This document shows, one piece after another, positions 25,739 through 62,555 of a stretch of DNA of 64,000 bases. Both the position numbers and the translations under genes were made by a program. Under the pieces are notes generated by a model that made no database searches, was not told where the DNA came from, and saw nothing but the letters and a program-made list of their open reading frames with translations. The DNA comes from Nemertoderma westbladi (lineage: Eukaryota; Animalia; Xenacoelomorpha). The first letter of the stretch is position 1. The number at the start of each line of letters is the position of its first letter. The stretch is from positions 1 through 64,000 of the forward strand of contig JAUCBJ010006967.1 of NCBI GenBank assembly GCA_032718475.1, written 5' to 3'.

Positions 25739-26024
25739 TTAAAACAATAAAATAGGACATGGGGTCTATTCCCTCAGATACTACCTAGCAATTTCCTGAC
25801 ATCTGCGCAATTTTGTTTAAAAATCTGATCATATATCTGTACATACCGGTAGGTGCTAATTGGGGTTGGTTGCATTCAGTTGGGAAATCATGTTTATGCA
25901 TTTGGGGCTGATGGTAACATACATTGGGGGTGGGTGGTTTCAACTCTGTTCGGTGGTACGGTAGGATTTCTAATTTATTGGTCATTATCTTAATTTAGTG
26001 GTGCAGTTTTGTTAGGGTAGAGGT

Positions 26025-26096
26025 GGGGTTCGTGGCACACTGCTGATGAGGAGAACCACGAATCCCAGGGTTCAGTGTTTAAATCTCCGAAACCCT
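26025..26096 (+). ncRNA. Hammerhead ribozyme candidate 1 (substrate strand nested in loop II; predicted GUU cleavage after 26072)
   Basis: CTGATGA 26043-49 and GAAA 26089-92. Stem II GGAGA/TCTCC; stem I ACACTG/CAGTGT; stem III AGGG-T/A-CCCT; extra 11-bp helix 26025-35 with 26056-66. Confidence 0.75.
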
Positions 26097-26877
26097 TTTA
26101 TTTTTATAAAATTTATTACTTAGACTTACCTTTTTCGGCGGACAAAATGTCCTATATTTTTCTTAATTTATGGGATAGCCTATTTCGTGCAATACTTACC
26201 GGAACCTGTAGTTACTGTATGGTTTGGTGCAATTTTTCTTGTGGTAGTTGGGTTGGGTTTATGTAGCCCCTTTTTTATTACTTTTTTGTAATAAAAGAGT
26301 CTTTTTACTCATTACACACCTGGTTGTACAGTACCTTCTACTGCACCGCATCAGCATAATTAATTAACTAGTTTCAGAAGTTCAGTAATGAGGCCTCTTT
26401 TGGTACGACAACTATTTGATTAATATATTCATGTTATAGGCAAATAATTATTCCAACCGGACTGGATGCGGTATGTTGTGCCTCTTCAATGATAATGGAA
26501 AAATAGATGCTGTAGAAGGACCGGATTCTGGGTTCCAAAAGCTAAACACATTTATCATTGGAAACAATAGTCGTATTGATGTGAGTAGTGTGGGGTACTG
26601 TTATATTAACGTTAGACTGAGGTACAATAATAATACTATTTTTATGCCTAATTTACTAAATGTAAGACTGCGTTCGTTATAACTAAGTTTATATGAAAAT
26701 ATTAAAATTATTATGTCCAAATGTAGGAGGTGAGTGCTTCTCTAGGAAAAGTCGTGGCTGAGATCGATAAAGATAGATCATGTGGGGTACGGCGATCACT
26801 TAACTACTCACCATCGAATGTCCAAAAACCTTTAAAAAGAAAGCCGTCCAAAGGAAATCGTTGTTGTTTGTGCAGCA

Positions 26878-28215: not shown

Positions 28216-28454
28216 ATTTGTGTTGTAAGTCGAGTGTGGGAGAGGGCAAGAGTGTGTGGTGTGTTTATATTATAATTTTGTGTTCTGTGTTTATAATTTT
28301 GTGTTGTGTGTTTATAATTGTGTGTTGTGTGTTTATAAGTGTGTGTTTGTGTGCATTGTGTTGTGTATATGGTATGGTATATTGTATTTTGTTTATAATT
28401 ACAAATTTTTCATTGTGTTTTCCAACACTAACTGAAATCCATTAAATTGAAACG

Positions 28455-29786
28455 ATGCCTATATGCGGTGTCAATGGTTGCACAGAGGAGATTGAAGAGG
28501 ACTTTATTGCATGTCCTGTATGTGGGGCAAGTAAAGACCGTACAAGTGTGGAGGAGCTATGTTGCGGTAAAGTGGTTAATCCAAAGTGGATACAATGTCC
28601 AAGGTGTTTAAAGGCTTTAAACGTTGCAGCTGGGCCTGTAGAACCTCCCAGTTCAAATCGATTTCAAATCGAGTCTGCTACTTCGATTGAAAAATTCAGA
28701 ACGAATTTGAAGATTGCAATGATAAATGGGAAGGAGTGTTATATATCGCCAGATTCCCCCGTTGCTGGTATTATTACTGTGCCAGTTATTAAAATTGACA
28801 TGAATACCAAAATTATACCTCATACAAGCATTTATCAGAAGTGTCTATTGACCTTTGTCAATGATTTTGAACGTAGAAATGTTACGAATTTGAGTTCAAT
28901 CGCAGCTTCTATTTGTGAAACATATCCCGAGTTTAAGCGGAAGCATAAATCCAATAAATCATCGATGTATTTGGCTCTTCAGCATGACTACGTGAACTCC
29001 CGCCACAATTACCGCAACAGAATGAAGGCGAAGGACAAGAATCCAAAAATAATTGTGGAAGGCCAGTCTGGGGGGGTGGGACAGGTTGCTGGGGACAAAT
29101 CTGCGGAACAGGTCGCTGGGGACAAATCTGTGGAACAGGTCGCTGGGGTCAAATCTGCGGAACAGGTCGCTGGGGACAAATCTGCGGAACAGGTCGCTGG
29201 GGACAAATCTGCGGAACAGGTCGCTGGGGACAAATCTGCGGAAGTTAATGTCGCTGGAACTAACAGTATATCATTGCTTGAAAATGCTGCTGTTGTTCAA
29301 GTGCAAATGGGAAGGAAAACCATAAACACCAAACCGCTACGTAATCAACCACAACGAAAAAGAAAGAAAGCAATAGTAATATCGTCATCAAGTGAAGATG
29401 ATGTTAGTGAAATGTTGTTGTTCGATAGTTCTGAAGACGATGTTGAAGAGGAGCCGGAAATACAAATGGAGGTTCAGGGAGTGAAGTCGTTGGTGTTTGC
29501 GCGCCAAATGAAATCTAAAGATTTCTGGCCAGGGAGACTGGATGATGCTCCGGATGGCTGTAAGATGCCGAAGCCAAAAGATCCATCGGATACATTTAAA
29601 TGGGTCTATTTTTATGGTAGTAATAACTACTCCTGGGTTAAGAACACTCCGGAGTATATTGTTCCTTATGTGGAAAACCGCGATCTGTTATCAGAGCCGA
29701 AACCAAGCAGTACTAACGCGTTCTTGCGCGGAACTGAGCAAATTAACGAATTATACAATTTATTCATGGAAGATAATGATGAGTGA
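28455..29786 (+). CDS. CACTA accessory ORF2: N-terminal double zinc ribbon, 9-aa repeats, C-terminal PWWP domain
   Basis: CGVNGC..CPVCG..CCG..CPRC; about six GDKSAEQVA units (27-bp repeat, 29079-29241); LVFARQMKSKDFWPGRL...WVYFYGSNNYSWV...IVPY. Confidence 0.75.
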   Translation: MPICGVNGCTEEIEEDFIACPVCGASKDRTSVEELCCGKVVNPKWIQCPRCLKALNVAAGPVEPPSSNRFQIESATSIEKFRTNLKIAMINGKECYISPDSPVAGIITVPVIKIDMNTKIIPHTSIYQKCLLTFVNDFERRNVTNLSSIAASICETYPEFKRKHKSNKSSMYLALQHDYVNSRHNYRNRMKAKDKNPKIIVEGQSGGVGQVAGDKSAEQVAGDKSVEQVAGVKSAEQVAGDKSAEQVAGDKSAEQVAGDKSAEVNVAGTNSISLLENAAVVQVQMGRKTINTKPLRNQPQRKRKKAIVISSSSEDDVSEMLLFDSSEDDVEEEPEIQMEVQGVKSLVFARQMKSKDFWPGRLDDAPDGCKMPKPKDPSDTFKWVYFYGSNNYSWVKNTPEYIVPYVENRDLLSEPKPSSTNAFLRGTEQINELYNLFMEDNDE

Positions 29787-29819
29787 ACGTTGAACAATAT
29801 TAAAAGTGGGGTGAATAAA

Positions 29820-30178
29820 TATCGTAGCCTAAGTGTCATAAGGCCCTATGTCAAAAATTGCTTCACTGTTCAGGAGGCCTATATAAAATATAGAGATATA
29901 GGGCTTTTCTGCATTAAAATATTGCTGTATTGTCCAATGTGATTCTTGGATTTATCTTTATTACGTCATAATCTTCACTTCCCATTGGTTAACACTTTAC
30001 AAAGGGCCTTTCTGCAGTTAAATATTGTACGCTGGGATATAGGGCTTCACTTTACCACGTAATAATCAATTAAACTGTTCAAAACTCCACCAGCTGGTAG
30101 AGCATGTCTTAAAGTGTGGAATTGTATAAAAAAAAGTAAAATTCGACAAAAATCGACTTAAGGCACTTAGCTACGATA
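29820..30178. mobile_element. MITE-like insertion of about 360 bp
   Basis: Imperfect inverted ends TATCGTAGCCTAAGTGTCATAAG / CTTAAGGCACTTAGCTACGATA. Confidence 0.5.
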
Positions 30179-30272
30179 TATTGTAATAGCAACAACTTTC
30201 TTAATGGTAACCGTCAACTTTCTCTTTCTAAACTGCTCTGTAGATTTCGTCACCATTTAATATTTGTTTACT

Positions 30273-31176
30273 TTAGTTTATGTATATTTTTGATTAAGAC
30301 TGGATTGTTCCTACTATTACCGGTACCGTGAAATATAACTCTGTTGTAAGTTAGTTTATGTACATTTATATTCATGTGGATTAAGACTGGATTGTTCCTA
30401 CTATTACCGGTACCGTGAAATATAACTCTGTTGTAAGTTAGTTTATGTACATTTATATTCATGTGGATTAAGACTGGATTGTTCCTACTATTACCGGTAC
30501 CGTGAAATATAACTCTGTTGTAAGTTAGTTTATGTACATTTATATTCATGTGGATTAAGACTGGATTGTTCCTACTATTACCGGTACCGTGATATATAAC
30601 TCTGTTGTAAGTTAGTTTATGTACATTTATATTCATGTGGATTAAGACTGGATTGTTCCTACTATTACCGGTACCGTGAAATATAACTCTGTTGTAAGTT
30701 AGTTTATGTACATTTATATTCATGTGGATTAAGACTGGATTGTTCCTACTATTACCGGTACCGTGAAATATAACTCTGTTGTAAGTTAGTTTATGTACAT
30801 TTATATTCATGTGGATTAAGACTGGATTGTTCCTACTATTACCGGTACCGTGAAATATAACTCTGTTGTAAGTTAGTTTATGTACATTTATATTCATGTG
30901 GATTAAGACTGGATTGTTCCTACTATTACCGGTACCGTGAAATATAACTCTGTTGTAAGTTAGTTTATGTACATTTATATTCATGTGGATTAAGACTGGA
31001 TTGTTCCTACTATTACCGGTACCGTGAAATATAACTCTGTTGTAAGTTAGTTTATGTACATTTATATTCATGTGGATTAAGACTGGATTGTTCCTACTAT
31101 TACCGGTACCGTGAAATATAACTCTGTTGTAAGTTAGTTTATGTACATTTATATTCATGTGGATTAAGACTGGATT
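30273..31176. repeat. Ten near-identical copies of an 87-bp tandem repeat
   Basis: GATTAAGACTGG recurs every 87 bp from 30292 to 31162. Confidence 0.97.
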
Positions 31177-31869
31177 AATACCAATAAGTTGAATATAGGA
31201 ATATATCATAGGCCTAATAATGTTTTGTTAAACAATATTGTCCACATTCGCCACCATTAAATTTAAAAAATCTGAGGTTTTCATGGAAATTGACCTGCTG
31301 TTTATTTAAGTGACAACCCGGGTTTCACATCCAAAGAACATAGGTTTTTATGCAAATAAACCTACGGTTTATTTAAGTGACAACCCGGGTTTCACATCCA
31401 AAGAACATAGGTTTTTATGCAAATAAACCTACGGTTAATTTAAGTGACAACCCGGGTTTCACATCCAATTACCCTGAAAAAAACGTAGTTTTTTTTATAT
31501 AAATAAAGCGAGGGTTTATATACCAAACAACCCAAGGTTTCATGATCATGCATAACCCACGGTTTAATTATGGACAAAATAAACGCTGGTTTCTCAAAAT
31601 AACCGTAGTTTAAATTTACCCCGAATTGAACCACGGTTATTTTTGAGAACCAGCGTTTTTTTAAGGAATAACCCCCGTTTCGTTTTTTCAGTGTAGGATC
31701 ATAATTAATGAAACAACGGTTCTATCTGTTACTTTAACCGCCGGTTTCTTAAAATAACCCCCGGTAGTTTTGGTGTAAAAATACCCGGGGTTATTTTAGA
31801 AAACCGGCGGTTTTTTTAGTTAAAACCAAGGTTTATCTTTTTCAGTGTATACCTATATCTTTTTCAGTT

Positions 31870-34501
31870 GGGCCATGAGATTTGAAGCCCAGCATGGTGT
31901 ACTAAAACGTGGCTGAAAAGCCAACAATCATATAAAAACATTCCAAAATATTTGGCAGCCAGGCATCAAGAAAATGTGTGCTATTATTTGTCTATAAACT
32001 CATCTGGTTTTTTATATGAAATTGTTCGTGGCTATAAAAAATCCCCTACATGTAGCAGATTTGGACACAATACTGACTTGCAGGCCTTCGGGAAAACTAA
32101 GTACTATAACTAAAATTATGTGTCTAACAAAAGTATGATATTTCTTGGCTTGAAAGATTCCCTTCCATTTTTTGGGCTGATTACTGAACAATACATCTAC
32201 AAAGGAGGGAAAGATTTACTTATCATGGTTCAACCTTTATTAACCGAAGGCTATTGCAGCCACATTTGCTCATATATAATATCGAATGAATTCGTGCCAA
32301 CATTGGGAGTTTGGTTATCTTCATTTGAAAATCTCCCAATAGAACTGCGGCCAAAGAGTTATAAAGAATTAATTGTGGTGAACTATAAGTTAGAGTTGTA
32401 AAATTCTTATTGTGTTTAACTTAATCTTACACTTTATTCATGGGGCCGTAATCTGAATTTATATAAATATAATTAAACCAAGTATTTGCCCGAGTAGCTA
32501 TTTCAAGTAATATAGCTCCTCGTCTTATTATCAAAAACTGTTGGTCCTAGGCTTGGTATAATATTTAAGTAATTATTATAGGTATATAGCCTAACTACGG
32601 TATATATTAGCGATATAAGACTAATTATATTATATCATGAGATCCTGCCAGTGCGGTAAATCCCTTCCTGATGGATTTCTCTTCTGCTCCGGATGTGGCA
32701 CTCCTGCTCCACCATTAATTAAAATGTGCTGTGAGATTGTTATTGGAGACGATTGGGTGCAATGCCCACGATTCCGCAAAGATGTTGTTGGCGCCATTAC
32801 ACAAGATGGAGACGACAATGTTGGGGTCGGTGGTGTTTCTAACACCCCGAGCACATCCGGAAAGCAGAACATTATTGGAAATAATCGTGAAAGTCTAATC
32901 AAAGTTGAGATAGGGGGCAGTGACTATTATCGTCCAAAGGAACTTGACACAGTTAATTATGTTCCGGTGCTGGTACTTTCTATTGGCGTCGATAAAAAGG
33001 TAGTAGCTCTAGGGGGTGCCGTCTTTAATCGCTGCATTCGGGCATTGGAGAAGGATTTTAGGGAGCGTGGAATTAGCAACCTAACAATAATTGCGCAGTC
33101 CGTCTGTTCCGTGTACCCTGAATTCGAGTTTCAACATTCAAACCGAAAAAGTAAATCTCAAGTGTTTCAGACGAAATTTGCTGAGTGTCTGCAGAATTAT
33201 AAGAAACGTGAGGCAAAGAAAGTACGTGAAACGGATAATATGGAAACAAACCTTCTTGAGAAAGCGGTCAGTTTGGGCGAGGAGGGTGCCACTACTAAGA
33301 AACGAAATATAACGACAAATAAAAACACAAATAAACGCGCCCGACACCATGCCTTTGTTATAGACGAAGCTGTCGAAGTTCTGGAAAGTGACGAAAGTGA
33401 GGAGATGTCCGGTGATGAGGGTGAATCATCTGGAATTGATACCGGTAGTTTAATCGAAGCGAAAAAATTAGGAGAATATGTGTGGGCCAAACTATCCAAG
33501 AAGGATATATTTTGACCCAGCAAAGTGTGCGAACCCTATGGTAAACCGAGAAGCATTCATCGTCCCCACTGGGTATATTTTTTCGGAACCCATAATTATG
33601 GTTGGGTCAGCAGTGGCCTCATAATAGCGTATGAAGCAGACAATAACCCCGACAAAGAGCGGAAGAATAAGGGGAAGAAGTTTGAGCAAGGAGTACTGGA
33701 ACTGGAATTGGAGAGGGTTGGGCCACAGGAGTCATAGGGTATCGCCTATGTAAATGTTTATACCTGTTATGTTTACCTGATAATATAATTAATGATATTA
33801 TTAATTAGTTGAATATTGAGAATGGAGACGGTTGAATAAGAATTAATAATATGCTGAATTATATAAACTATTATTATCTGATTTGGGGGTGGGGGGGTTA
33901 ATAAACCATGGTTATTTTCAGAGAACCACTGGTAATATTGTGAATAAATCACGGTTATTTTTGGAAAATCGGCGTTTGTGTTTTAATAAACCACGGTTAT
34001 TTTCGGAAAACCACTGGTAATATTGTGAATAAACCACGGTTACTTTCGGAAAACCACTGGTAATATTGTGAATAAACCACGGTAATAATTGGAGAATCGG
34101 CGTTTGTGTTTTAATAAACCATGGTTATTTTCGGAAAACCACTGGTAATATTGTGAATAAACCACGGTTATAATTGGAGAATAGGCGTTTGTGTTTTAAG
34201 AAACCACGGTTACTTTCGGAAAACCACTGGTAATATTGTGAATAAACCACGGTTATAATTGGAGAATCGGCGTTTGTGTTTTAAGAAACCATGGTTATTT
34301 TTAGAAAACGGCCGTCGGTTACGGTGAATAAACCGCGGTTTCTTTTTTGACAACCCTTAATTTATAACCCTGGTTATTTATATGAAAAAACCGCCGGTTC
34401 CCCGAAAAAACCCTGGTTAAAATGCAACAAAAACCACCGGCGGTTTTTTCAGGAAATTTGGCGGTTTTTTAAGGTAAAACAGGGGTTATGTTTTTTCAGT
34501 G
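31870..34501 (+). mobile_element. CACTA/EnSpm-like copy 2 (diverged, 5'-truncated): transposase relic, PWWP ORF2, subterminal repeats, CAGTG end
   Basis: WAMRFEAQHGVLK at about 31870; AAACCACGGT-rich repeats at 33900-34330; terminus TTTTTTCAGTG at 34501. Confidence 0.7.
32637..33737 (+). pseudogene. ORF2 of CACTA copy 2: double zinc ribbon plus PWWP, with a nonsense codon at the PWWP Trp
   Basis: CQCG..FCSGCG..CC..WVQCPR; YVWAKLSKKDIF*PSKV...HWVYFFGTHNYGWV..IIAY. The frame continues through the TGA at 33513-15. Confidence 0.75.
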
Positions 34502-37759: not shown

Positions 37760-40420
37760 ATAAAATTACACCAAACTGCAACAGAAACAGTTGAAGATTT
37801 TGCTGATAAATTAAAAAGAGTTGCACGCCATGCATTATCTTCCCCAGACACAGAACAGGCAGAGGCTTCGTGCAGAGACACAAAGCAGGATACTAGACCA
37901 ATTTTTGTATGGTCTCCATATAACGATTCGCTGCAAGGTTTTAGAACATGTAGCGCATGAGTCCCTTTAGAAAACGTCATTTCAGAGGCTAAAATGATAG
38001 AAGCTAGTGTACGTGTAGATAACCCTATGTTAAAAGCACCGCTTACGGAAGATGATATTGAACGTATCATTCAGAAGTCTAGAGAAAAAAATCATTACAG
38101 ATCACCATCAAATCATAAAACTGAATATAATTTGGAAAGTATCTCTCAGTTAGAGGAAAGCGTTAATAAATTATCTAAACAGGTAAGTGAACTTACAAGT
38201 AAGTTTAACGAACTATCACAAGTAAGTTTAACGAACTATCTGGTGAAATTAACCCAACTGTTATGAATATGGTAGCTGTCACATTTAAGGAATTTATGTC
38301 CCCAGCTCATAAGACAAAAGGTAATATTTGACTCGGCTGATAGAAGTAATAGAAGAAGAGAATAGTCACAAGAACGAGGTAACATGGATAACAAACACGA
38401 TAATAAATGGGAAAACCACAGCAAATCCTTCCAAAACAATTCAGTTCGGTCAAGTTTACTTCAAGTAAATTCGACTCAGGAGTTAATTATGGAAGTACTT
38501 GTTGAAAGTAACCCAGTTGAAGCAAATTAATGTAGATAGAGGGTCACAAGTTACTATTATCACCGAAGAGTTCCTTAAGGGGGGGGTACACCCCCCCTCA
38601 GGTCAAAATTTTCATTTTTTGTTTTTTTATTTCATCTAGAGTAGAATTTAATGCGGATTTCAAATCTGGAAACGGCTTAGCGAGATCTCTTTTACTTCTC
38701 GAGTAATGGCTGGTTTTCCGTCTGTATGTCTGTCTGTCTGTCCATCGAAATATTAAAAAGGGCATAAAATAAGCAATCTGAAATGTTTACTGTTAGGATT
38801 TTTCTTAATGTCGATGTCTGTTTTAATATTTGGAATTATCTAATCACTATGTCTGTATCTCAGTCTGTCTCTCAGTTTGTCTGTCTGTTTGTATGTCTGT
38901 CTGTCTGTCAACATGTCCGTCAAATTTTAATTAATATATATTTAATAGATATTTGTGAGTTTTGTATTACATATTGAACAGTTGTCTAATGGACTAGTTG
39001 TCTACTAGTAATAACAAATGTGAACCATCATATAACAATAGCTAGTAATAATTATTCTGGGAAACAACCATAAACTTATTTTTTTTTAATTCCGCAGGCT
39101 CTGAGAATAATTCACGTGCTGCGCGAAGTCTTCATGTGCAGCATGAACTTTTCATGTGCCGCGTGAAGGCTTCTCATTCTGATCAAAAAGCTTTCCGAGG
39201 TGCTCGATTAATTAACGTGCTTTATGAAGAATTTAAGTGCTACGTGAAACCTTCACCTGCTGCGCAAATGTCTCACGTGCTGCGCGAAGGTTTCACGTGC
39301 TGCGCAAAGCTTAATGTTCTGTGTAAAGGCTTATTATAAAATTATGTGGAAATTTTTATATAATTTTGAATGTTTCTTAAGGTTATCTCATTATTCCATG
39401 ACTATTTATTACTAAATGACGAAATAGTATGCGATCAAATCAATACGCCAAAATGTAATTTGTTCACGTGCTGCGCGAAGTGTTTTTTGGCAAGCACTCT
39501 AAAATTATTTTAACAGGTTGTTAAAAGTGGGTAGGGGTTTTTTTGAACCAAATTTCATGAAATCCATTGAGAAATCACAAAATATGGATAGGGGATAACC
39601 AATGGGAAAAGAAAAGGAGATACCAGTACTGAAAATAGCGGGAACATTTGAAATATATTGTTCTTAAACTTTAAATGCGTTTATCTCGGAATTGTATTTT
39701 TCACATTCAAAATACTACTACTCAGCCATTTCTTAACCAATTTTCGAAATTTTTTTTTTGTTTGATTTCTTTTCGGGTTTTGATCAAAAGTTATCGGTTA
39801 GAATTTTGAATTGTGCCATATTAATTTCTTGAAATTAGTTAATATCTATTAAGTAATAATTAATATTAGTTAATAATATTTAAAAAATATTTAAGACCTA
39901 AATAAAAAATGTAACCGATAAGTTTTGTGGAGCCGAGGATGCTGATTCAGAAAAACCAAGTTTCGAAAATTTTCGCCCAAAATTGTGAGACTAGTAGTGT
40001 TTTTAGTGAAATTAACAATTTCGCTGGTGGCCGCTAGAGGGCGACGCAAATTTGAAAATTTTTTTTTTGAACCCAATCTTTGGCCATATGTTAATCCCCC
40101 GAAAGGTATAAAATATACAAAATTACACACAAGCAGAAATTATAGCCATTTGCAAAAAAGGTCCATAGGGGGGTGTACCCCCCCCCTTAATAAAAATATT
40201 AGAAACACACTTTACATGTATCCTGGAGAAACATTAACAACATTAGGAGGTGATAAAGTAGATAGTCTAGGTAGAACGAAATTAAATATTCATTGTGGAA
40301 ATAATTCGTGGACAGGTCTTGTGCACGTAGTCCGTACTTTGAATTGTAGTACAAATTTGCTGTTGGATATAGATAGCATTATTACACTAAATATACTAGA
40401 AATGGGATTGAAAATTATTA
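37760..40420 (+). pseudogene. Degraded LTR-retroelement (Gypsy-like) gag-protease relic interrupted by the first Kolobok-like copy
   Basis: QTATETVEDFADKLKR; VDRGSQVTII before the TTAA site, continuing LTTLGGDKV..LG...LLLDID after it. Confidence 0.5.
38579..40186 (+). mobile_element. Non-autonomous Kolobok-like element, copy A (1.6 kb)
   Basis: TTAA TSD; GG...CC termini with TIR G8TACACCCCCC; internal CACGTGCTGCGCGAAG repeats. Confidence 0.85.
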
Positions 40421-41352: not shown

Positions 41353-41783
41353 GTGAGTAATAAATAAATAGGAAATGTACCTTATGTGTAAAGTAACCTC
41401 TTGAATACTGAGAATCATTATTGGTTTGATGGTATCTTAGTGTCCTAACTGCGGTGTTTAATACATACCGCGTGCAAGTTCCTGTTCTTACGGGAGGAGC
41501 GCCTATATAGGTTTCCTCCAGGTTTTCTTCGGTTATTTTTTCTATCAATTTCCTTTAATCAAATAAATCACAGAAGTTTTATAACATAACGAGCAAGATA
41601 GCGAGATTTAAGTTGCGACTCTGAATAACTTGATATTATATTTCTGACTTTGTATTTTTCTATTTTAAAGCTTATTTATCTCCTATCTTGCAGCTCAATT
41701 ATTTTGGTAAAAGTATGGTATCATTATTGCATATTGATTGAATATACCATACTTTCAAGGATAGTGATCCAGGTAAAGTTTAA

Positions 41784-43387
41784 GGGGGGGGTACACCCCC
41801 CTATGGACCTTTTTTGCAAATGGCTATAATTTCTGCTTGTGTGTAATTTTGTATATTTTATACCTTTCGGGGGATTAACATATGGCCAAAGATTGGGTTC
41901 AAAAAAAAAATTTTCAAATTTGCGTCGCCCTCTAGCGGCCACCAGCGAAATTGTTAATTTCACTAAAAACACTACTAGTCTCACAATTTTGGGCGAAAAT
42001 TTTCGAAACTTGGTTTTTCTGAATCAGCATCCTCGGCTCCACAAAACTTATCGGTTACATTTTTTATTTAGGTCTTAAATATTTTTTAAATATTATTAAC
42101 TAATATTAATTATTACTTAATAGATATTAACTAATTTCAAGAAATTAATATGGCACAATTCAAAATTCTAACCGATAACTTTTGATCAAAACCCGAAAAG
42201 AAATCAAACAAAAAAAAAATTTCGAAAATTGGTTAAGAAATGGCTGAGTAGTAGTATTTTGAATGTGAAAAATACAATTCCGAGATAAACGCATTTAAAG
42301 TTTAAGAACAATATATTTCAAATGTTCCCGCTATTTTCAGTACTGGTATCTCCTTTTCTTTTCCCATTGGTTATCCCCTATCCATATTTTGTGATTTCTC
42401 AATGGATTTCATGAAATTTGGTTCAAAAAAAACCCTACCCACTTTTAACAACCTGTTAAAATAATTTTAGAGTGCTTGCCAACAAACACTTCGCGCAGCA
42501 CGTGAACAAATTACATTTTGGCGTATTGATTTGATCGCATACTATTTCGTCATTTAGTAATAAATAGTCATGGAATAATGAGATAACCTTAAGATCGTTC
42601 AAAATTATATAAAAATTTCCACATAATTTTATAATAAGCCTTTACACAGAACATTAAGCTTTGCGCAGCACGTGAAACCTTCGCGCAGCACGTGAGACAT
42701 TTGCGCAGCAGGTGAAGGTTTCACGTAGCACTTAAATTCTTCATAAAGCACGTTAATTAATCGAGCACCTCGGAAAGCTTTTTGATCAGAATGAGAAGCC
42801 TTCACGCGGCACATGAAAAGTTCATACTGCACATGAAGACTTCGCGCAGCACGTGAATTATTCTCAGAGCCTGCGGAATTTAAAAAAATAAGTTTATATT
42901 TGTTTCCCAGAATAATTATTACTAGCTATGTTATATGATGGTTCACATTTGTTATTACCAGTAGACAACTAGTCCATTAGACAACTGTTCAATATGTAAT
43001 ACAAAACTCACAAATATCTATTAAATATATATTAATTAAAATTTGACGGACATGTTGACAGACAGACATACATACAAACAGACAGACAAACTGAGAGACA
43101 GACTGAGATACAGACTTAGTGATTAGATAATTCCAAATATTAAAACAGACATCGACATTAAGAAAAATCCTAACAGTAAACATTTCAGATTGCTTATTTT
43201 ATGCCCTTTTTAATATTTCGATGGACAGACAGACAGACATACAGACGGAAAACCAGCCATTACTCGAGAAGTAAAAGAGATCTCGCTAAGCCGTTTCCAG
43301 ATTTGAAATCCGCATTAAATTCTACTCTAGATGAAATAAAAAAACAAAAAATGAAAATTTTGACCTGAGGGGGGGTGTACCCCCCCC
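41784..43387 (-). mobile_element. Non-autonomous Kolobok-like element, copy B (inverted, nearly identical to copy A)
   Basis: TTAA TSD, same TIRs, reverse complement of 38579-40186 with few substitutions. Confidence 0.88.
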
Positions 43388-43820
43388 TTAAATCAGAAGT
43401 TCTCAATCTTGAAGATGATATTATGGAGGTTCCACCTGAACCAGAACCATGCCTTGATCCACTTGGAGAACTTAAGTCCTTCTTATCTTTTCATCAACCT
43501 GTTTTTTGAAGGTAAAGAGATGTATATCAATGGGTTGACATTTATTTCCAATTTCAACCGAGTTGAAATTTAAAACTGTTTTTTAAATTTCAACTTTTAA
43601 GTTATAAAGTTTAAATAAATAATAATAAATACAAATTGTAAAATCTAATATATTTTTTTTATACTGTGTGTGTTTGCCCCAGCAACCTACCAGTTTTTCC
43701 ATTGGTATCACTGCTTTACTTAGGGTTCCAATTTTCTGTGGTCTGATGTCTTTTTGAGGAGTTCATGGTGCGATTGTTTAGGTCATTGGTGCAATATAGA
43801 TATGCTTTGGATAATCCTTT

Positions 43821-43888
43821 GTCCAGCTGATGAGGTGTCGAGAATACCGCGTACTGGGTCTCAGACACCGAAACGCAACCATATTCTT
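43821..43888 (+). ncRNA. Hammerhead ribozyme candidate 2 (same nested topology; predicted GUA cleavage after 43853)
   Basis: CTGATGA 43827-33 and GAAA 43870-73. Stem II GGTGTC/GACACC; stem I TCCAG/CTGGG; stem III GCG-T/A-CGC; helix GAGAATA/TATTCTT. Confidence 0.68.
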
Positions 43889-45275
43889 GATACAATTAAT
43901 TATTTATTCCCGAGTTCTACCCCTTTATGGCGACAAAATGTCATATATTTTTCTACAGAATATAGGCTTAGCTTTTGTGCAGTATACTACTGGTATCATT
44001 TAGTGTATGACAGTTAGGTCAGGGTTAGGGTGCGATACATACCTGTATGTTGAGCATGTTTCAATTTATTTGTATATGTCGTTTTTGTTTGTATTATTTG
44101 TGTCGTAGTACTTTGTTAACTACATTATTAACATTACAATAAAATAAAATAACTTACAAAGACGAGATGCAAGTAGTATAGAATGCTATGACACGGCACC
44201 AAGGTCACCCGTAGTCCATCATTACCATCCATTTCTGGTACTGCAGCCAATCAGAAGCCACCATTTCAACCTTTACCAGTGGTCGTTATTATTTCAACCA
44301 ATCAGATGACAGCATTTCATCCGTAACCATGGTAAATTCTCAAGTTCCCGCTTATTCCGCTAGAGGCGTTATTAGTCCCCCGACGCTAGTACTGCATCCA
44401 ATCACCAACCTTTATTTTACAGGTGTTCGAGTGTCTACACTTAGCATCAGGTAACGTCTACTATTTTTCAAATCGCTATTTTTCACCAACCATTGCATAT
44501 TCATCTTCACATAGCCTAACCTCACGATGCATGGCTAGCCCCCATCCCATCATCGCTACTCAATCCACAGCTGTTACCCACCCACCAACCAACCAATCAA
44601 CGGCGATGTTTGCCTAACCCTACGGTTATTCGCCTTTTCACCACGTTACCACCACTACCGCGCAACCAACCACTGTATACTGTATATGCTGACAACGTGG
44701 CCACCAACTACACACATCATGCATATATTATATTATATTGATTGCCAACTCCACGACTGCTGTCGCCAATCCATTCAACCAAGCAACCTACCAGTCCAAC
44801 AGTAGGATACGTGTTGAAATTCCGCCACGTTTCCGGCTACACGTATACGAACATTTCCATAGTTATTTCCTATTCACGCAACCAACCAACCACTGTATAC
44901 TGTATATGCTGACAACGTGGCCACCAACTACACGCATCATGCATATATTATATTGATTGCCAACTCCACGACTGCTGTCGCCAAATCAACAAACCAAGCA
45001 GTATGATACATGAGATTCCGTCAGGTTCCAGCTACGCGTATACGAGCATTAGTGATTATTATTACGCAATAATTTTTTTGTTTATACAGTAGTTACCCAC
45101 CAGCTAATCAACCAATCAATAAACCGAATTTAGGCTATTTCTCAGTTTAAGACCTGTATTATTTTTGAAAATATATATATAATCTCTTGCTTTAATCGCA
45201 ATTAATCATTTGTAATGGTTTTAGTTTAAAAGTTTTTACTTTGTTTGTTTGATTTACAATAAAATAAATTAAATA

Positions 45276-45722
45276 ATGTCTTCTGATTCCAATATGGTTA
45301 TGCCAATGGTAAGGCATTCATTTTTCGCAGAAGATGGTCAAGCCTATATTGTTATTGATCATACAATTTACCGTCAGGGAGATGATAAATATAAAATTGA
45401 ATTTTCTGAAAAAGCCAGGAAAGTTTTAAGCTCAATCGATATTGATGCTTCAGATAATAGTATTCATCTTTTAGATTACAACCTGAAAGCTGGGCATGAG
45501 GGAGGAAAATTAAGCAACATTTTACTATTATCCATGATAGAGGGATTTATTGTTATTACACAATACAACGAAGCTGGTGAAAAGTTTGAAATACGGCTAA
45601 ATCGACATAGCCCCTACGAAATTATGTCTTTCTTTATTGTAATGATTTCAAAAGAATCCTTTGTCGAACCTGAAGAATCAGCGGATAATGTTGAATATGT
45701 TGATAATATCATTGATTCTTGA
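45276..45722 (+). CDS. Polinton hypothetical protein
   Basis: 148-aa intact ATG ORF inside the Polinton; no recognised motif. Confidence 0.55.
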   Translation: MSSDSNMVMPMVRHSFFAEDGQAYIVIDHTIYRQGDDKYKIEFSEKARKVLSSIDIDASDNSIHLLDYNLKAGHEGGKLSNILLLSMIEGFIVITQYNEAGEKFEIRLNRHSPYEIMSFFIVMISKESFVEPEESADNVEYVDNIIDS

Positions 45723-45887
45723 CTTTTCCCTCTATATTATAAATATTTTATGATTATATATAAAATTTTGTTGTTTTTAAATAATCGAAAATTGTAGTAG
45801 TATTTGTATATACAGTATAACAGTTTTGTTTGTTGTTGTTGTTGTGTATTGTGGTAATTATTTTCAATTTACTTTAAAATTTGGAAA

Positions 45888-46340
45888 ATGGATATTTTAA
45901 ATGAAAAATGTCCAGTTTGCTATTCTAAGTTATTGCAAAAACATCGAGATTATTATAAATGTGAAAATAAACATGCAACTTGCGTACAATGTATTGTACA
46001 ATATTCCGAAATGAATAATTATTGTTCTAAAATTTGTCCTATTTGTCGCGCACCTATATCTAAGTTTAATATAAAGTTGGCAAGATACCAACCCTTTTAT
46101 TGGAAAGAGCTTCGCAATATAACTTATATTTCTGCGAAAAGTAATGATCCCGGAGATTTATTTACAATATTGGAGAATATTTTTTATAGAAACGTAGTAC
46201 GACGCTGTTGCTACTATATTCCTTATTTTTTTAGCGGCGAACATAAAAAAATCATAAGCGCGAAATTTTCGGGAAGTGATTTCCAATCCGCCGATGTTAC
46301 CTATCATTATTTCGCGTATAAAGATGCTCACCATGCTTGA
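45888..46340 (+). CDS. Polinton RING-finger protein (C3HC4-like, putative E3 ligase)
   Basis: CPVC...CENKHATCVQC...CPICR. Confidence 0.8.
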   Translation: MDILNEKCPVCYSKLLQKHRDYYKCENKHATCVQCIVQYSEMNNYCSKICPICRAPISKFNIKLARYQPFYWKELRNITYISAKSNDPGDLFTILENIFYRNVVRRCCYYIPYFFSGEHKKIISAKFSGSDFQSADVTYHYFAYKDAHHA

Positions 46341-46548
46341 AATTACATCAGTCTATACTATAATTGGAAATAGCACCTTTTGCTGCAGCGAGCGTCACAT
46401 ACTGTAGTTGTGTCATATGTTAATTAAATATACAGTACTCTAATATTATTGTAGTTCCATCAATTATTGTTATATACATAGTAATGGTGTTGGTTTATTG
46501 ATATTGATATTATATTATATTGTTGATATATCTTAATAATAATAATAA

Positions 46549-47223
46549 ATGGCTGACTTTAATTCAGGCCCATATAATTTAAACTTTCAAATGGGTACAA
46601 GTATGATAATTTCAGGACCATCTGGCTCCGGAAAGTCAACCTTTGTGGGGAATTTAATTAAACACAAGAATGGCTGCTTCAACGAAGCCCCTTTGCGAGT
46701 ATTGTATTGTTACGGGAGCAATCCCCCAACTATTCCCGGTATTACTCACCTTTACAAAGGCTTGCCTGAAAATATAGATAGTTTAGTGAATAGTCGAGAT
46801 TTATTAATTATAGATGATTTGTTAACAGAAACTGTGTCCAGTACAGCTTTAACAGTATTGTTTACTAAGGTAGCTCATCATTCCAATATATTTATTTGTT
46901 TTATAACGCAAAACATGTTTTACGGTGGGAAGCATAACCGCACAAGATCAATTAATAGCCATACTTTAGTATTAATGAAAAATCCGAGAGACAGTCTATC
47001 GGTTTTAAATTTCGCGAAGCAAATGTTACCAGGACAGACCAAATTTTTAGTTGATTCCTATCAAGATGCAACAATTGAGCCATTTTCACATTTCTTAATT
47101 GATTTACGACAGGAAACACCCGAACATTTAAGATTTAGATCGGATATATTTCGTAATCATAATTGTTACATTAAAAATTACATTGACTATAAACGTAGCG
47201 AAAATAATAATAATGATAAATAA
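46549..47223 (+). CDS. Polinton packaging ATPase (A32/FtsK-like)
   Basis: Walker A GPSGSGKST, Walker B LLIIDD, ITQN, RSINS..VLMKNPRD. Confidence 0.9.
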   Translation: MADFNSGPYNLNFQMGTSMIISGPSGSGKSTFVGNLIKHKNGCFNEAPLRVLYCYGSNPPTIPGITHLYKGLPENIDSLVNSRDLLIIDDLLTETVSSTALTVLFTKVAHHSNIFICFITQNMFYGGKHNRTRSINSHTLVLMKNPRDSLSVLNFAKQMLPGQTKFLVDSYQDATIEPFSHFLIDLRQETPEHLRFRSDIFRNHNCYIKNYIDYKRSENNNNDK

Positions 47224-47233
47224 TTAATATTTT

Positions 47234-47644
47234 GTGACAATTTTCAATAATGTTGCAACAATGAATAGACTTGTGCAGAAATATCGTAATGAACTGGAAT
47301 TTCTACGCAGCGCTACCCCTCAACAAAGAACTTATTTTATTAACCATACCGCCAGTAACGAATTAATACGGCTCATTGTAAATACTGCATTAAATGTTCT
47401 AAAAGGTAATGTACAATTGACCCCTCATTCATTTAGAAATATTCGCCGCTATAAGAAGGTATTGAAATCACTCAACCGTAAGACAAAAAATATATCAAGT
47501 TACAGAAAAAAGTTAAGCAATCAATCTGGAGGCATACTACCGTTTCTAATACCCTTACTCGCCATTGGTGCGAAACTAGCCGCGAGTGCCGGGGCCGCTG
47601 CCGCTGGGGCTGCTATTGCGAAAAAAATTAACCGTGGACGGTAG
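47234..47644 (+). CDS. Polinton basic core-like protein with a GG|ILPFLIPL hydrophobic tail (adenoviral protein X-like)
   Basis: NVLKGNV.LTP, K/R-rich, QSGGILPFLIPLLA; likely ATG at 47261. Confidence 0.65.
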   Translation: MTIFNNVATMNRLVQKYRNELEFLRSATPQQRTYFINHTASNELIRLIVNTALNVLKGNVQLTPHSFRNIRRYKKVLKSLNRKTKNISSYRKKLSNQSGGILPFLIPLLAIGAKLAASAGAAAAGAAIAKKINRGR

Positions 47645-47650
47645 GTAATA

Positions 47651-48385
47651 ATGGTTAAAACGGGAGTAACATTTAGAAAATTATATTTAGTATCGAGTAA
47701 ACCGTTAGCTACTGATTTAAAACCACAAGATATACCTAGAGTAAATAAATCTGTAAGGAAATATTTAGATACGTTAGGTATACAGTATTACGTAATGTAT
47801 TCTGTGAATAAGGCGGCTATTGTCGAGAGATTTAACAGAACCTTAAAAACAAAGATGTTCAAAATTTTCACACAAAGAGGAAATAATATTTGGATAAAAA
47901 TTTTACCTAAGCTTATCTCAGCTTATAATAGGTCGTATCATAGAACAATACAAATGACACCTATTGAAGTTAATAAATTTAATGAAACTGAATTAATGAA
48001 TAGATTATATGGGAAATATAGACAGATAAATCACAAGAAAATAAAATTTAAAGTTGGAGATACAGTACAATTATCTATTGCTCGTACTGCTTTCGCTAAA
48101 GGCTATCGAGAACAATGGACACGTGAATTATTTATTATTCATCGGGTCAGGTTGGATAGAGTACCAGCGGTAATGTTCGATATTAAGGACAGCACCGGAG
48201 CTATAATAAAGGGCTCATTTTATTCTCACGAACTTCAAAAGGTTCACCCGAATAGTAATATTTATCTAGCAATTGACCAAAAAAATATTGGCAAACTTAA
48301 AGAACGTGTACGCAACGGGAAGAAAGAATATTTAGTCCGATTCATCGGATCCAAGAAACAGTCCTGGGTACAACATATTCAATAA
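47651..48385 (+). pseudogene. Polinton retroviral-like integrase with an internal deletion (C-terminal half and chromo-like tail retained)
   Basis: KAAIVERFNRTLK, YNRSYHRTI.MTP, FKVGDTV, FAKGY..QWT.E.F, EYLVRFIG; the first two catalytic Asp motifs are absent. Confidence 0.82.
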
Positions 48386-48452
48386 GCTTAGGTTTATACT
48401 GTATATTAATTCATTTTGGTCGCATATGACCGTAATTAATCAATAATATTAA

Positions 48453-50813
48453 CCCAGCAAGTCCCGGACCATGAATGCTTCAATGAAATTTCTTGAAATT
48501 TTTATTGTGAGCATAAAGTGGACCTATTAAGAAAATTCCAAACTTTGGTTAACGTACATATATGGGAAGATAGATTTTACATAGGGTCTACAAATGTAGA
48601 CGTTAGGACTTCAAGGGTACAAAAATACACTTATTTTGTGCAAAAATATGTGCAGACAGTGGTGCGGACACTGGTGCAGTCAGTGGTGCAGACACCTGGT
48701 GCAGACAGTGGTGCAGACAGTGGTGCAGACAGTGGTGCAGACACTGGTGCAGACACTGGTGCAGACAATGGTGCAGACAGTGGTGCAGACACTGGTGCAG
48801 ACTTTGGTGCAGACAGTGGTGCAGACACTGGTGCAGACACTGGTACAGACACTGGTGCAGACAGTGGTGCAGACACTGGTGCAGACAGTGGTGCGGACAC
48901 TGGTGCAGACAGTGGTGCAGACAGTGGTGCAGACACCTGGTGCAGACAGTGGTGCAGACAGTGGTGCAGACAGTGATGCAGACAGTGATGCAGACACCTG
49001 GTGCAGACACTGGTGCAGACAGTGGTGCAGACACGCGTGCAGACAGTGGTGCAGACAGTGGTGCAGACACTGGTGCAGACAGTGGTGCAGACAGTGGTGC
49101 GGACACTGGTGCAGACAGTGGTGCAGACACCTGGTGCAGACAGTGGTGCAGACACTGGTACAGACACTGGTGCGGACAGTGGTGCACACACTGGTGCAGA
49201 CAGTGGTGCAGACACATGCATCATGCTGCATGAAGGCCTTTTAGCAGTTTCAACAGCCCTTTTCAGCATTTATCATGCTGCACGAAGGCATCTGAACAGT
49301 TTCAACAGCTATTTTCAGCATTCTCATATTGCACAAATCCCTCTGAACAACTTCAAATGTTATTTTTTAGCATTTATGCTGCATGAAGGACTTTGAACAG
49401 TTTTATAACTTTCAACAGCAATTTTCAGCTTTTCTCATGTTGCACAAAGCCATCTGAACAGTTTTATCAACTCTTTTCAGTATTTCACCTTCTGTGCGAA
49501 GGCCTGAAAGTTTCAAAACTTATTTTCAGTCTTTCTCAAGCTACTCGAAGACCGCTGAACAGTTTCAACAGCTCTTTTCAGCATTTATCATGCTGCACAA
49601 AGCTCTGAATAGTTTCATTTCAAAATCTTTTTTCAGCGTTTATCATGCTGCACAAAGGTCTCTGAGCAGCTTTGAGAGATCTTTTATGTATTTTTCAAAC
49701 TGTGCGAAGGCCCCTGGGCAGTTTTATCAGTTCTTTTCAGTTTTTCTCATGATACATGATACCCTCTGAACAATTTCAACAGCACTTTTCAGCATTTATC
49801 ATGCTGCACAAAGGACTCTGAACAGTTTTAGTGGCTCTTTTCAGGTATTTAACATGCTGCGCGAAGGCCTGAATAATTTCAAAAGCTCTTTTCAGTATTT
49901 AAAATGCAGCAAGAATGTCTCTAACCAAAGCGTTTTGACAGCTTGTTTCAGTATTTGTGATGCTACTTGACTGCTTGAAGGCCTCTAAATAGATTTGGTG
50001 GGGTTGAAATGAACATAAGAACCCAGCGTTCATGTCAATATTGACATTAGATGTCAATATTGACATGCAATAAAACATACTGTATCATTAAAATTATTAC
50101 AAACAACAATATACATTGGTTGGATTCAACAATATTTTAATTAAAATAGATATTCTCTTTACAAAAAAACATTTTCTACTTTTCAAATCACAATATTTAA
50201 AAAATTTATGATCAAAACATGTCAATATTGACATCATGTCAATTTTGACATGGAACATGTCAATATTGACAACATGTCAATATTGACAAAGTGCCCGACT
50301 GTACAGTACCTACTCTATGTCAGGTGAAATTATGAGCCCCTGTATCCTGTATCCATATTCCTGTATGAAATGTCTTCTGAAATTACAGTATATACTGTAC
50401 TACAGTAATTTCAGTGATATATTGTACCCCTTAAGTCCTAAGGTCTACATTTGTAGACTTGCTCATTCAGGACATCACGAATTCTAATTACATGTTGTTG
50501 GGAGCTTCATAATTCATTTATATGTTCAGAAATTATCAGGGATGATAATATTTGCATCTCCAAGTCACATGAGGCAACTTTCGTCCTAAAATTAGAGTTG
50601 AATTGACTCGTACTCTTTTTGCATAAATTCACTAAAATTGAGCTTTTGTCAGATGTTAGTATTGCGAACATGAGGGCTAAAATTTACTTTAAATAGTACT
50701 CCCATGCCTCTAAGTCTGATTTATAGTGAAAATACTAAATAAATTGGTACAGCTTTTAATTGAGAGCACCATATTGCATGGGTCTACAAATGTAGACCTT
50801 AGGACTTAATGGG
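48453..50813. mobile_element. piggyBac-like non-autonomous composite insertion (TTAA-flanked, four TIR-like copies) inside the Polinton
   Basis: TTAA|CCCAGCAAGTCC ... GGACTTAATGGG|TTAA. Internal end-like copies at about 48583-48617 and 50428-50458 carry the palindrome GTCTACA(A/T)(A/T)TGTAGAC. Confidence 0.7.
48650..49215. repeat. 12-bp minisatellite GGTGCAGACA(G/C)T, about 47 copies
   Basis: Direct reading; it produces spurious repetitive ORFs in all frames. Confidence 0.97.
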
Positions 50814-50990
50814 TTAACTCGAATGATATTACTATATCTATAGTTCATCCGCTTTAAATAAAGCCAGTAAAATATTGATCCCACACATATACTGTAGAAG
50901 ATGCTGGCAATGAACGTGGTCACAGATGTCTATAATTTAACATTATACTGTATGTACAAAGGAGTCAAGTAGAGAGAGCGAGCTTTAATA

Positions 50991-51863
50991 ATGGCCACAG
51001 ATACATATATCACTCTACTGTCAGATAGCTCATTGAACACTTATCCCAATAATAATCCTAGTGAGTTTACTGTTGATTTAGCCGAAGAATTATATATTGG
51101 TCCAAATGCCAAAATTGGACTCGCCGAACTTCAATACCAAGCAACATACAGTAATATTACGCTGCAAACTCAAATCTCACTGTCAATCGGGGTAGATGCA
51201 AAAGATGCCAAATTATATAGTTTATTTCCTGGTATGCATAACTCTATTCAAGTGATTATTGATGATATAAATAAACTGTTTAATTCTGAAGCGAAATATA
51301 GAGATTTCGAATTCATTTTTAATACAAATAATTCTAGAATTAAATTTAAATTTCCTAAAAAGTTGAAAAAAATACAATTAAGTCTACGAGGTGATTTAAT
51401 ACAAATTCTAGGCTTAAAACCGTTATTGGATTGGAATCATCCGGATATTCCGAATTGGGATATATACAGTACCACTACAGTAGATGAATTAAGCAATATA
51501 GAACAGCCGATATTAATTTTAAATTATAGCGGACCAAAAATTTCGGAAATTGGCATTTTAGATTTTCCAGCTCCCACAAATATAACACGTAATAAAGACA
51601 CTATCTTTATATACACAGATATTATTAAGAGCTCATTTGTTGGCGACGCTTTAGCACCGCTCTTAAGAACCTGCCCTTTAACGCAATTAAATCGAAAATA
51701 TATTAATCACGAATACGAGAGCATTTGCTATTTCCCATTGTTGAATAAAAAACTAAAAACAATCTTAATTACTTTACGTGACGGCCAAGGTCAATTAATT
51801 AACTTCAGTGGAGGCCGTACTGTTATAACACTTAAGTTAATACGGGGTGGCGGCGATGGATGA
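50991..51863 (+). CDS. Polinton minor capsid (penton-like) protein 1
   Basis: YITLLSDSS..YPNNNPSEFTV.L, IGLAEL, IFIYTDII...VGD..APLLR, Y.PL, I.ITLRD..G..I.F..G. Confidence 0.8.
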   Translation: MATDTYITLLSDSSLNTYPNNNPSEFTVDLAEELYIGPNAKIGLAELQYQATYSNITLQTQISLSIGVDAKDAKLYSLFPGMHNSIQVIIDDINKLFNSEAKYRDFEFIFNTNNSRIKFKFPKKLKKIQLSLRGDLIQILGLKPLLDWNHPDIPNWDIYSTTTVDELSNIEQPILILNYSGPKISEIGILDFPAPTNITRNKDTIFIYTDIIKSSFVGDALAPLLRTCPLTQLNRKYINHEYESICYFPLLNKKLKTILITLRDGQGQLINFSGGRTVITLKLIRGGGDG

Positions 51864-52701
51864 GTTCTACGTAAGGCTGCCGAGTAACTCATGTCCAATT
51901 GATTTTCCCCGCAATAGCGCTAGTAATTATCAGATAAATTTCCACGGTGCCTTACCTATAAATCCAAACGAAAACTGGGTGGTAGGTATAAAAAGTATAT
52001 TTTACTTAGCAACGTTGCCGTCCATGTATAACAATGTAGAGAATGTTATTTTATTAAAAAAAGGGAAAAAAATTTTTGAGGATACACTTCCATCTGGTTT
52101 ATTCTACAGTATCAACGACATTATAGATTATTTTAACACGGGGACATTGAAAGATAAATTACAAATAGTTGAAAATACTCAGCAAAATAGATTGCAATTT
52201 ATTTTAGGGAAAACTGTGCGAGAGTTATTTATAGGCCAACAATTAGCCTATTATTTTGGAATTACTGAAAATAATCTTGGCGCGAATTTAAATCCAAATT
52301 TTAAAATTATTTTGAAGACGAAAAATAATATAAAGGGTTATTTAATAAAGGTTATCGGAAATGGAGAAAAGGCTTACCAGATGGTATTTTTATGCCCTCA
52401 ACCATCCAACTCTATTCCAGAACCTAAATCGAACATGTACGTGACTACTAATATAATTGAAAATCAATATATTAACGACTTTGGTTTAGCTTTACTTCGT
52501 CGTGTTGCGATACCTGATGATGTGAAATATGGCAGCGTAATAAATAAAGAATTTGTCAAGGATACAATTCATTATATCCCTGTAAAAAAATCATATAAGA
52601 TAACATACATTCATATTGAAATAACAGACAAAGAAGGAAAAGATTTGTATTTTGAATACGGAACAACTTGTATTACCTTACACTTTAAACGTATAAATTA
52701 A
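51856..52701 (+). CDS. Polinton minor capsid (penton-like) protein 2
   Basis: FYVRLPSNS..FPRNSASNY, W.VGI, MYV.TNII...I.D...LLR, HYIPV, IHIEITD..G..L.FE.G...ITLHFK. Confidence 0.8.
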   Translation: MDEFYVRLPSNSCPIDFPRNSASNYQINFHGALPINPNENWVVGIKSIFYLATLPSMYNNVENVILLKKGKKIFEDTLPSGLFYSINDIIDYFNTGTLKDKLQIVENTQQNRLQFILGKTVRELFIGQQLAYYFGITENNLGANLNPNFKIILKTKNNIKGYLIKVIGNGEKAYQMVFLCPQPSNSIPEPKSNMYVTTNIIENQYINDFGLALLRRVAIPDDVKYGSVINKEFVKDTIHYIPVKKSYKITYIHIEITDKEGKDLYFEYGTTCITLHFKRIN

Positions 52702-61008: not shown

Positions 61009-62555
61009 ACAATCATTTTCACATATATACATATAATAAATACAATGCAATTATACGAATTCAGTTCATATAGGTATCAAGTATAATTGCTTTATTTTCA
61101 GTTACTTTTACACATTTCATAAAGGTATTAAGTATAATTGCAGTAATTCAAGTTTCTTTTTTACTCAGTTCATAAAGATGCCAAATATAATTGCTTTACT
61201 CAAGCAAGTATAATTGCAGTAATTCAAGGTACTTTTTTACTCAGTTCATAAAGGTGTCAAATATAATTGCTCTACTCCAGTTAATTTTATTCAGTTCATA
61301 AAGGTTTAGAATTATAATTGCACAATTTCAATTTACTTTTATTTCCAATATCTTGCTGAATGTTTGATACATCTGATGCAGAAAACAATATTTGTTTTTG
61401 TCAAGGATTTGCAGAAATCGTCTGTCTTAGAGGAAGAAAATAACGTAACTCATTAAAATCGTAACTCTTTCAATCTCTGACTAAATTATACCAAACTTGG
61501 TAAACATGTAATCTTGTCTATCGGCTAAAATAAACACAATTTGCTAAAATTTCCCCTATAATGTTTTTTTTCCTATAGAGCAATCTTATACATTGACAAG
61601 ACTTATAAAATAATTGATGTTGAATAATTATTATTAAGATTAAAATATATTATTATGACCCTCCAACCGGTTGCTTCCCACTCCCAGACAGTCACCGACC
61701 CAGCCCTATAGGTTCACGAGGCAAAGCGGTTCCTGTCCGTAGAAACTGCGACTCTGAAGTAAGCGATAGTATCTCCGGATCGCGATAGATATTCCTTTTT
61801 GTAGAGAGTTGATGAGTTTATGATACAGGGGAGGTTGTTGTAAAACACAAAGACAACCTCATCGGTTCTGGTTGACTTAGAATGGACAGTTCTTCAGTAT
61901 TACTCTAATATAAAATGTTTATACAGTATAAAGGGTTTGCTTTAAGAAACTGGGGAATACCAGTCACTCTGTCCACTGGAAAACTTAAATATGGCTACTG
62001 CAAGCTATAATCTAAATAAGTTAATTATAAATTGCATTTGCATACCTGCCCACTGCCTGAAACCAAACTGTTGTGTTGGAGACACACTCGTTATATGCAA
62101 CTTCAGCGGCTCAAAGACCCGTTGACCCATTTCATCCACCGTTGAATTCGACGACTTGAACCAGCCACAGATATCCCATCCTCCCCCCATAGCGAGCGAC
62201 CTCCGCTTGAACATGAGCACGAAGTTCCTCATTGCTAATCTTCTGATCAATACACTATATTGGAAGGAAGTTTAATAATATAATTATACGAAGTTCTACT
62301 ATTTAATATTGTTACTATTACTACTATAAGTAAGCATCCAACTCATCTTAGCCTTAAAAAAATTATCAGACGACTAATATAAGTGTAAATAATTTTGCTT
62401 AGAATTTGCATACCATGTAATAGGGACCTTACGCTTACATGTATGCAGTAGCGTGTGGGCGTAGCAATTGGTGCAGGCGTAGGTGTGAAATCTTATGTCG
62501 GATATTCTTATTTAATTTCGATAAATGTACGTTTTCAAAAGTTCTATTATGGTAA

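Follow-up and report, generated by a model that had tools for sequence, protein, structure and literature searches.

Candidate type-CSG hammerhead ribozymes in multi-copy non-coding animal repeats, probably derived from Penelope-like elements

A transposon-rich window with two candidate ribozymes

The window, meaning the whole 64-kb stretch of DNA analysed here, is rich in transposons and holds Bel/Pao and piggyBac elements, a weak Plavaka-like match and a Polinton-like gene run, together with two candidate hammerhead ribozymes, copy 1 and copy 2 (Table 1). The Bel/Pao retrotransposon (464-14206, minus strand) also contains two long additional frames, one at 464-3013 that matches nothing in Pfam and another at 11954-14206. 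An intact piggyBac transposase frame spans 23366-25745, and an end-like AAAGGG followed by TTAA lies near 25735-25743, just ahead of the element carrying copy 1. At 26836-33515, a Plavaka-like transposase frame adjoins a zinc-ribbon/PWWP gene and a similar second gene. An inverted repeat (38575-40190 / 41780-43391) with 1.6-kb arms that are 99% identical around a 1.6-kb spacer ends 250 nt before the repeat carrying copy 2, and just upstream of that repeat, at 43561-43595, contig depth is elevated over an inverted repeat whose 15 bp all match. The region 44170-52701 opens with a very high-depth CCAAT-rich repeat, which starts near AGTAGT at about 44176, and continues into a Polinton/Maverick-like run of ATPase, integrase-like and two capsid-like frames (labels assigned by eye; Pfam weak or blank). 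A reverse transcriptase fragment at 62452-62913, which from its motifs we take to be an ordinary LINE, is unlinked to the ribozyme copies.

Table 1. Coordinates of the two candidate ribozymes, the repeat carrying copy 2 and the shared downstream motif
Feature	Position	Strand	Basis or remark
Multi-copy non-coding repeat carrying copy 2	43640..44105, ends approximate	+	contig depth, record ends, T-run loose end at 44099
Copy 2, 5' brace strand	43810..43819	+	two mismatches in window copy; 7 uninterrupted pairs given majority letters
Copy 2, stem I 5' strand (block C)	43821..43826	+	pairs with 43854-43859, two G-U
Copy 2, core CUGAUGA	43827..43833	+	only variable seventh-position base 43831 changes among contig differences listed
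Copy 2, stem II 5' strand	43834..43839	+	6 Watson-Crick pairs with 43864-43869
Copy 2, stem II-III linker (brace strand)	43840..43848	+	partner: 5' flank (family majority), 3' flank (window copy)
Copy 2, block S: stem III 5' strand, GUA, stem I 3' strand	43849..43859	+	predicted cut after 43853
Copy 2, stem I-to-II linker, 5-nt	43859..43863	+	cut-to-GAAA spacing 16 nt in both copies
Copy 2, block G: stem II 3' strand, GAAA (43870-73), stem III 3' strand	43864..43876	+	
Copy 2, 3' strand of 12-bp helix competing with stem II	43882..43893	+	sequence pairing, predicted energies
Small-hairpin motif common to both elements	43922..43954	+	79 nt past cut of copy 2
Copy 1 counterpart of motif	26129..26163	+	hairpin 69 nt past cut
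Copy 1: type-CSG hammerhead, GUU triplet, 11-bp 5' brace	26025..26096	+	predicted cut after 26072

The blocks of copy 2 are ordered C-S-G, and its cleavage block, composed of a stem III strand, GUA and a stem I strand, lies inside the stem II loop. The core of stem I pairs 43822-26 with 43854-58, including one G-U, and a further G-U adds a sixth pair; stem III (43849-52/43873-76) is formed by three G-C/C-G pairs and a U-A and is short, with no closing loop. A sequence check found every element that a preliminary description had assigned to copy 2 in its place, and confirmed the reported identity of pairing order between copy 2 and the divergent copy 1, as both are C-S-G. Stems I, II and III hold 6, 6 and 4 pairs in copy 2 and 6, 5 and 5 in copy 1, whose core fold occupies 26037-26096 and whose 5' brace (26025-35/26056-66) is an 11-bp helix joining the 5' flank to the II-III linker. 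The conserved core elements CUGAnGA, GAAA and UH show zero deviations in either copy. The topology, to which the preliminary description gave no name, corresponds by sequence to type CSG, a non-circular permutation published by Eckert et al. 2023, and the predicted cut of copy 2 after 43853 is placed by analogy with that type (PMC10085705).

A CSG descriptor identifies exactly two sites in the 64-kb window, at 26043 and 43827. As a chance control, we used 4,687 dinucleotide-preserving block shuffles of the window, which yielded five loose matches overall and none at the stem lengths that both copies reach; no shuffle held two matches (0/4,687). The elements carrying the two copies are related, with 270 nt of downstream sequence aligning at a score of 89, where shuffles reached at most 54, and a simple count finds five two-sided pair changes between them (two in stem I, two in stem II and one in stem III). 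These changes between related copies, and the recurrence of the fold in the nematode Naiads discussed below, indicate that the nested fold is probably under selection, as the preliminary description had suggested. A purely fortuitous match, or an RNA that forms just the plain hairpins of the nested model and never cuts, would agree with the minimum-energy nested folds of both copies, which differ from the ribozyme fold; it is nevertheless hardly credible in view of the shuffles, the two-sided changes and the demonstrated cleavage of two RNAs with the same wiring (PMC10085705).

A classical type I-III hammerhead reading was rejected, as the 200 nt flanking each core on either side hold no cleavage block in the classical order. 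Rfam returned nothing at gathering score across the whole window, and at E values up to 10 the interval 43400-44300 gave eight weak matches, none to a hammerhead family. Searches with a CSG pattern and pairing filter gave 0/22 in viral contigs and 0/120 in a further viral scan covering 5/64 parts, 0/27 in prokaryote genomes and 1/118 in metagenomes, the last a loose, G-U-rich match without a brace (L042) that we judged to be chance. These blanks are narrow: the metagenome and prokaryote patterns were tight and would miss all eight Naiad forms, and the published CSG contigs should fit the metagenome pattern yet did not surface.

The repeat family and competing partners of the brace strand

We compared the repeat carrying copy 2 across contigs of four DNA runs (X1-X4) from three studies, of which X1 is possibly the source of the window itself. 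Summed contig depth over the core, which is not a copy number, is about 7,000-14,600 in X1, 2,700-13,600 in X2, 1,700-7,200 in X3 and 700-1,700 in X4, compared with a depth of 5-60 for most single long records. The repeat matches no Pfam family in the seven short frames tested. Contig letters are mostly unphased and yield no phased covariation for the copy 2 family; among the six substitutions listed for 43790-43905 the conserved core bases are spared, the one core change falling at the variable position 43831, and the stem III change G43851A has no compensating partner among them.

The preliminary description had proposed that the II-III linker of copy 2 pairs with the 3' flank (43840-46/43882-88). 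This pairing is present, although seven base pairs understate it: the helix extends to 12 bp (43835-46/43882-93) and takes up five of the six bases on the 5' side of stem II. The majority letters of the family, taken from contig depth among the differences listed, are G43811, T43844, T43886 and mostly A43893, with T43844 accounting for 4870/5152, 2677/2722, 1644/1659 and 676/699 depth units in the four runs, G43811 for 60-65% in three runs and the whole of X4, and T43886 for 98-100%. Given these letters, the predicted energy is -8.1 kcal/mol for the 5' brace (7 bp) and +0.2 for the 7-bp 3' pairing, versus -0.6 and -5.3 kcal/mol in the window copy, where the full 12-bp 3' helix reaches -14.9 kcal/mol. 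The predicted probability of stem II is 0.91 with majority letters versus 0.0 in the window copy, in which a 5' hairpin also masks stem I (-7.2 vs -3.6). Even with majority letters, a nested model whose scoring leaves out pseudoknots favours a stem II hairpin that is extended, and gives the 5' brace 0.09. One 80-nt X3 contig covers 43808-43885 with two differences, one of which depth sums place at 43844 while the other is likely at 43811, and a second subfamily carries a different linker strand with an 8-bp pairing to 43812-19 (loose contig ends, unphased with the 5' strand).

We rejected a 3' brace as a family feature, since the majority letters abolish the 7-bp 3' pairing and restore the 5' brace. 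The earlier suggestion that the brace may come from the 5' flank holds for copy 1, with its 11-bp helix, whereas a brace from the 3' flank in copy 2 is not supported, the majority letters of the family favouring the 5' brace. The 3' pairing is instead a property of the copy 2 locus, and its simplest effect, judging from the modelled energies, would be a blocked ribozyme. Changes at 43811, 43844, 43886 and 43893 would disrupt the 5' brace in favour of two off-pathway helices, and cleavage of the window copy would be slow or absent. By these predictions it is probably a family member that has worn out or been switched off, and we think it unlikely to cut well.

Alternatively, the brace donor may have been swapped at the copy 2 locus, with the 3' tail replacing the 5' flank to create either a CSG variant that is active or a timed switch in which cutting would be possible only before the tail is transcribed. 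Of the three changes nearly private to the window copy, two (43844 and 43886) improve the 3' helix, an outcome that a post hoc estimate, based on 10/348 single changes that would improve it, puts at about 0.0025 by chance. An X1 contig matching the window copy (depth 234, flank-like) keeps the 3' pairing and has lost the 5' brace strand, with 43792-43822 (31 bases) replaced by three other letters and an A at 43862, and a 7-bp helix with a 2-nt link is close in length to the published 8-bp brace with its 2-nt link. However, the 3' helix runs five pairs further into stem II and leaves that stem no predicted probability, the 5' hairpin masks stem I as well, and C43886 is not seen in X2, X3 or X4 among the differences listed. 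Copy 1 moreover lacks 3' pairing (best value -1.5), and a 5' brace occurs in both published CSG RNAs and in all eight nematode Naiads. We consider a swap rather improbable, and hold to the same degree the wider proposition that type CSG resides in a broad set of animal Penelope-like elements and that the brace moved at this locus from 5' flank to 3' tail; if true, the extended 3' helix would shut the ribozyme and act as a built-in co-transcriptional off-switch.

Carrier element and proposed function

We regard copy 2 as likely to be a worn member of a self-cleaving type-CSG family housed in a multi-copy non-coding repeat that probably derives from a Penelope-like, Naiad-type element. The confidence differs by part: the copy 2 family is very likely a functional CSG ribozyme, and for the host element we lean towards a Penelope-like identity. 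Hammerheads cut after UH and leave a cyclic phosphate and a 5'-OH. By this chemistry, and in line with the tests of CSG-1 and CSG-2, copy 2 RNA would cut itself after GUA at 43853 to give the same ends. Pairing of the 5' flank with the stem II-III linker would clamp stems I and II in working members, and cutting would trim read-through or tandem transcripts down to unit ends.

The small-hairpin motif downstream of both ribozymes is identical in 31/35 columns between 43922-43954 and 26129-26163 and matches the window at only these two places, versus 0.07 matches expected. Located 69-79 nt past the cut, the hairpin may provide a binding or start site for a partner reverse transcriptase. In the one Penelope-like element tested in vitro, from an anole, reverse transcription begins about 85-90 nt beyond the hammerhead cut, within a stem-loop; its hammerhead required the element's protein, and hammerhead mutants left insertion unaffected (PMC11167929). 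In Penelope-like elements, the hammerhead cut is proposed to process tandem precursors. Contig depth is again several times higher over the shared motif (43922-43990, 26129-26200) than over the ribozyme, and more families with diverged ribozymes therefore probably exist. Among viral contigs the motif occurs at four loci, none carrying a ribozyme. With majority letters, the T-rich end of the motif looks like a splice acceptor.

The fold can also be read in Naiads, Penelope-like elements that Craig et al. 2021 described as devoid of a canonical hammerhead, marking eight "half cores" with halves 35-50 nt apart (PMC8557442). By eye, a type-CSG fold with a 5' brace ends all eight nematode Naiad consensuses in the file of that paper: Parc, the preceding record (Ppac by list order), Nbra-1, -2 and -3, Hcon, Hpol and Asuum. 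This reading covered the eight nematode families among the 54 Naiad consensuses. Craig et al. marked three of these eight as half cores and one as a core, leaving four unmarked. The 5' braces, read by eye, are 9-16-bp and lie in T-rich non-coding tails. Stem I pairs include GTCGTA/TACGAC, CCTTA/TAAGG, GCTTA/TAAGC, TCTTA/TAAGA, AACTCA/TGAGTT, CTTCA/TGAAG and CGTT/AACG, and stems II, III and the brace likewise vary in a paired manner. The CSG fold offers an answer to the reported absence of a canonical hammerhead and a reason why it was overlooked, as standard descriptors expect the core halves closer together and in a different order. In several non-nematode Naiad tails, GAAAC precedes CUGAUGA, another permuted order (supplement to PMC8557442, parts 10-12 and 24).

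That the window repeat derives from a Naiad is an inference, which we judge probable. Pfam analysis of 24 long frames and 15 short frames near the copies revealed no GIY-YIG/RT or Penelope-type frame, which a non-autonomous derivative would be expected to lack; no significant tandem or inverted terminal repeat surrounds the copies, and the 11-base core of the shared downstream motif has 0 matches in the Naiad/Chlamys/Hydra consensus file. With no frame, repeat or shared motif, the Naiad link rests on the ribozyme type and the T-rich non-coding setting. Weak repeat traces comprise an 18-nt echo 295 nt apart and an opposite-strand joint at 43664/43935 in three runs. The neighbouring piggyBac transposase has named relatives in cnidarians, tunicates, arthropods and fish and none in nematodes; the host is therefore likely an animal and probably lies outside the group whose Naiads show the fold.

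A functional CSG ribozyme could instead ride on a non-Penelope carrier, such as another non-LTR retroposon, a SINE-like repeat or a DNA element. This would account for the lack of both a pLTR structure and a Penelope-type frame and for the several contigs that terminate in the T-run at 44099; against it, Naiads are the only named elements in which the exact fold was read, and the parts of the literature consulted tie the hammerheads of animal repeats to Penelope-like elements. We consider such a carrier improbable and retain the Penelope-like derivation as our preferred reading.

Comparison with known hammerheads and Naiads

Animal non-LTR retrozymes resemble the window elements as short, non-coding, multi-copy repeats with a hammerhead, for which solo copies occur and a Penelope-like origin has been proposed (bioRxiv 10.64898/2026.07.22.740005). 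Their defining feature is a tandem arrangement of units bearing a type I hammerhead (bioRxiv 10.64898/2026.07.22.740005), whereas each window copy stands alone and belongs to type CSG. The type-SGC hammerhead HRIMA-1 (PMC10085705) differs in having another block order and in coming from metatranscriptomes.

Naiads are autonomous elements with a GIY-YIG and reverse transcriptase frame, and no such frame was found beside the window copies. Within the fold, the cut-to-GAAA spacing is 13-14 nt in six Naiads versus 16 nt here, the first stem I pair is A-U in seven and U-A in Asuum versus G-C here, and the Asuum Naiad has an additional U behind the core heptamer.

Eckert et al. 2023 defined six block orders and validated SGC and, with weaker covariation, CSG (PMC10085705). 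They knew type CSG from two unique soil-metagenome sequences of unknown host, CSG-1 and CSG-2, which cleaved at 0.004 and 0.026 per min, and they found none in genomes of known organisms and rated the CSG evidence weaker, as it came from two similar sequences of unknown origin (PMC10085705). Both window copies share with CSG-1 and CSG-2 the block order, the 16 nt between cut and GAAA and the 5-nt linker, which in copy 1 is identical to that of CSG-2, and a 5' brace like the published one can form in copy 1 and, given the majority letters, in the copy 2 family. In contrast to the published GUC triplet, copy 2 has GUA and copy 1 GUU, and copy 2 differs further in its shorter stem III, broken 5' brace and competing 3' helix. 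By eye, both copies fall just outside one published CSG descriptor (stem III of at least 4 pairs, linker of at most 10 nt), stem III of copy 2 being one pair short of that minimum, and this may be the reason that cases like these were overlooked; genome ribozyme scans would require CSG descriptors allowing longer linkers. A literature search, from which subscription papers were largely absent, yielded no paper placing type CSG in a genome. Although the topology itself is already published, our sequence comparisons place candidate type-CSG folds at the ends of nematode Naiads and in multi-copy animal repeats, and these ten sequences provide constructs for cleavage tests and for the structure of a doubly pseudoknotted hammerhead. 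Unlike CSG-1 and CSG-2 from soil metagenomes, the folds described here belong to two diverged repeat families in one eukaryote genome, and together with the eight Naiads their many stem sequences point to a likely biological role for type CSG.
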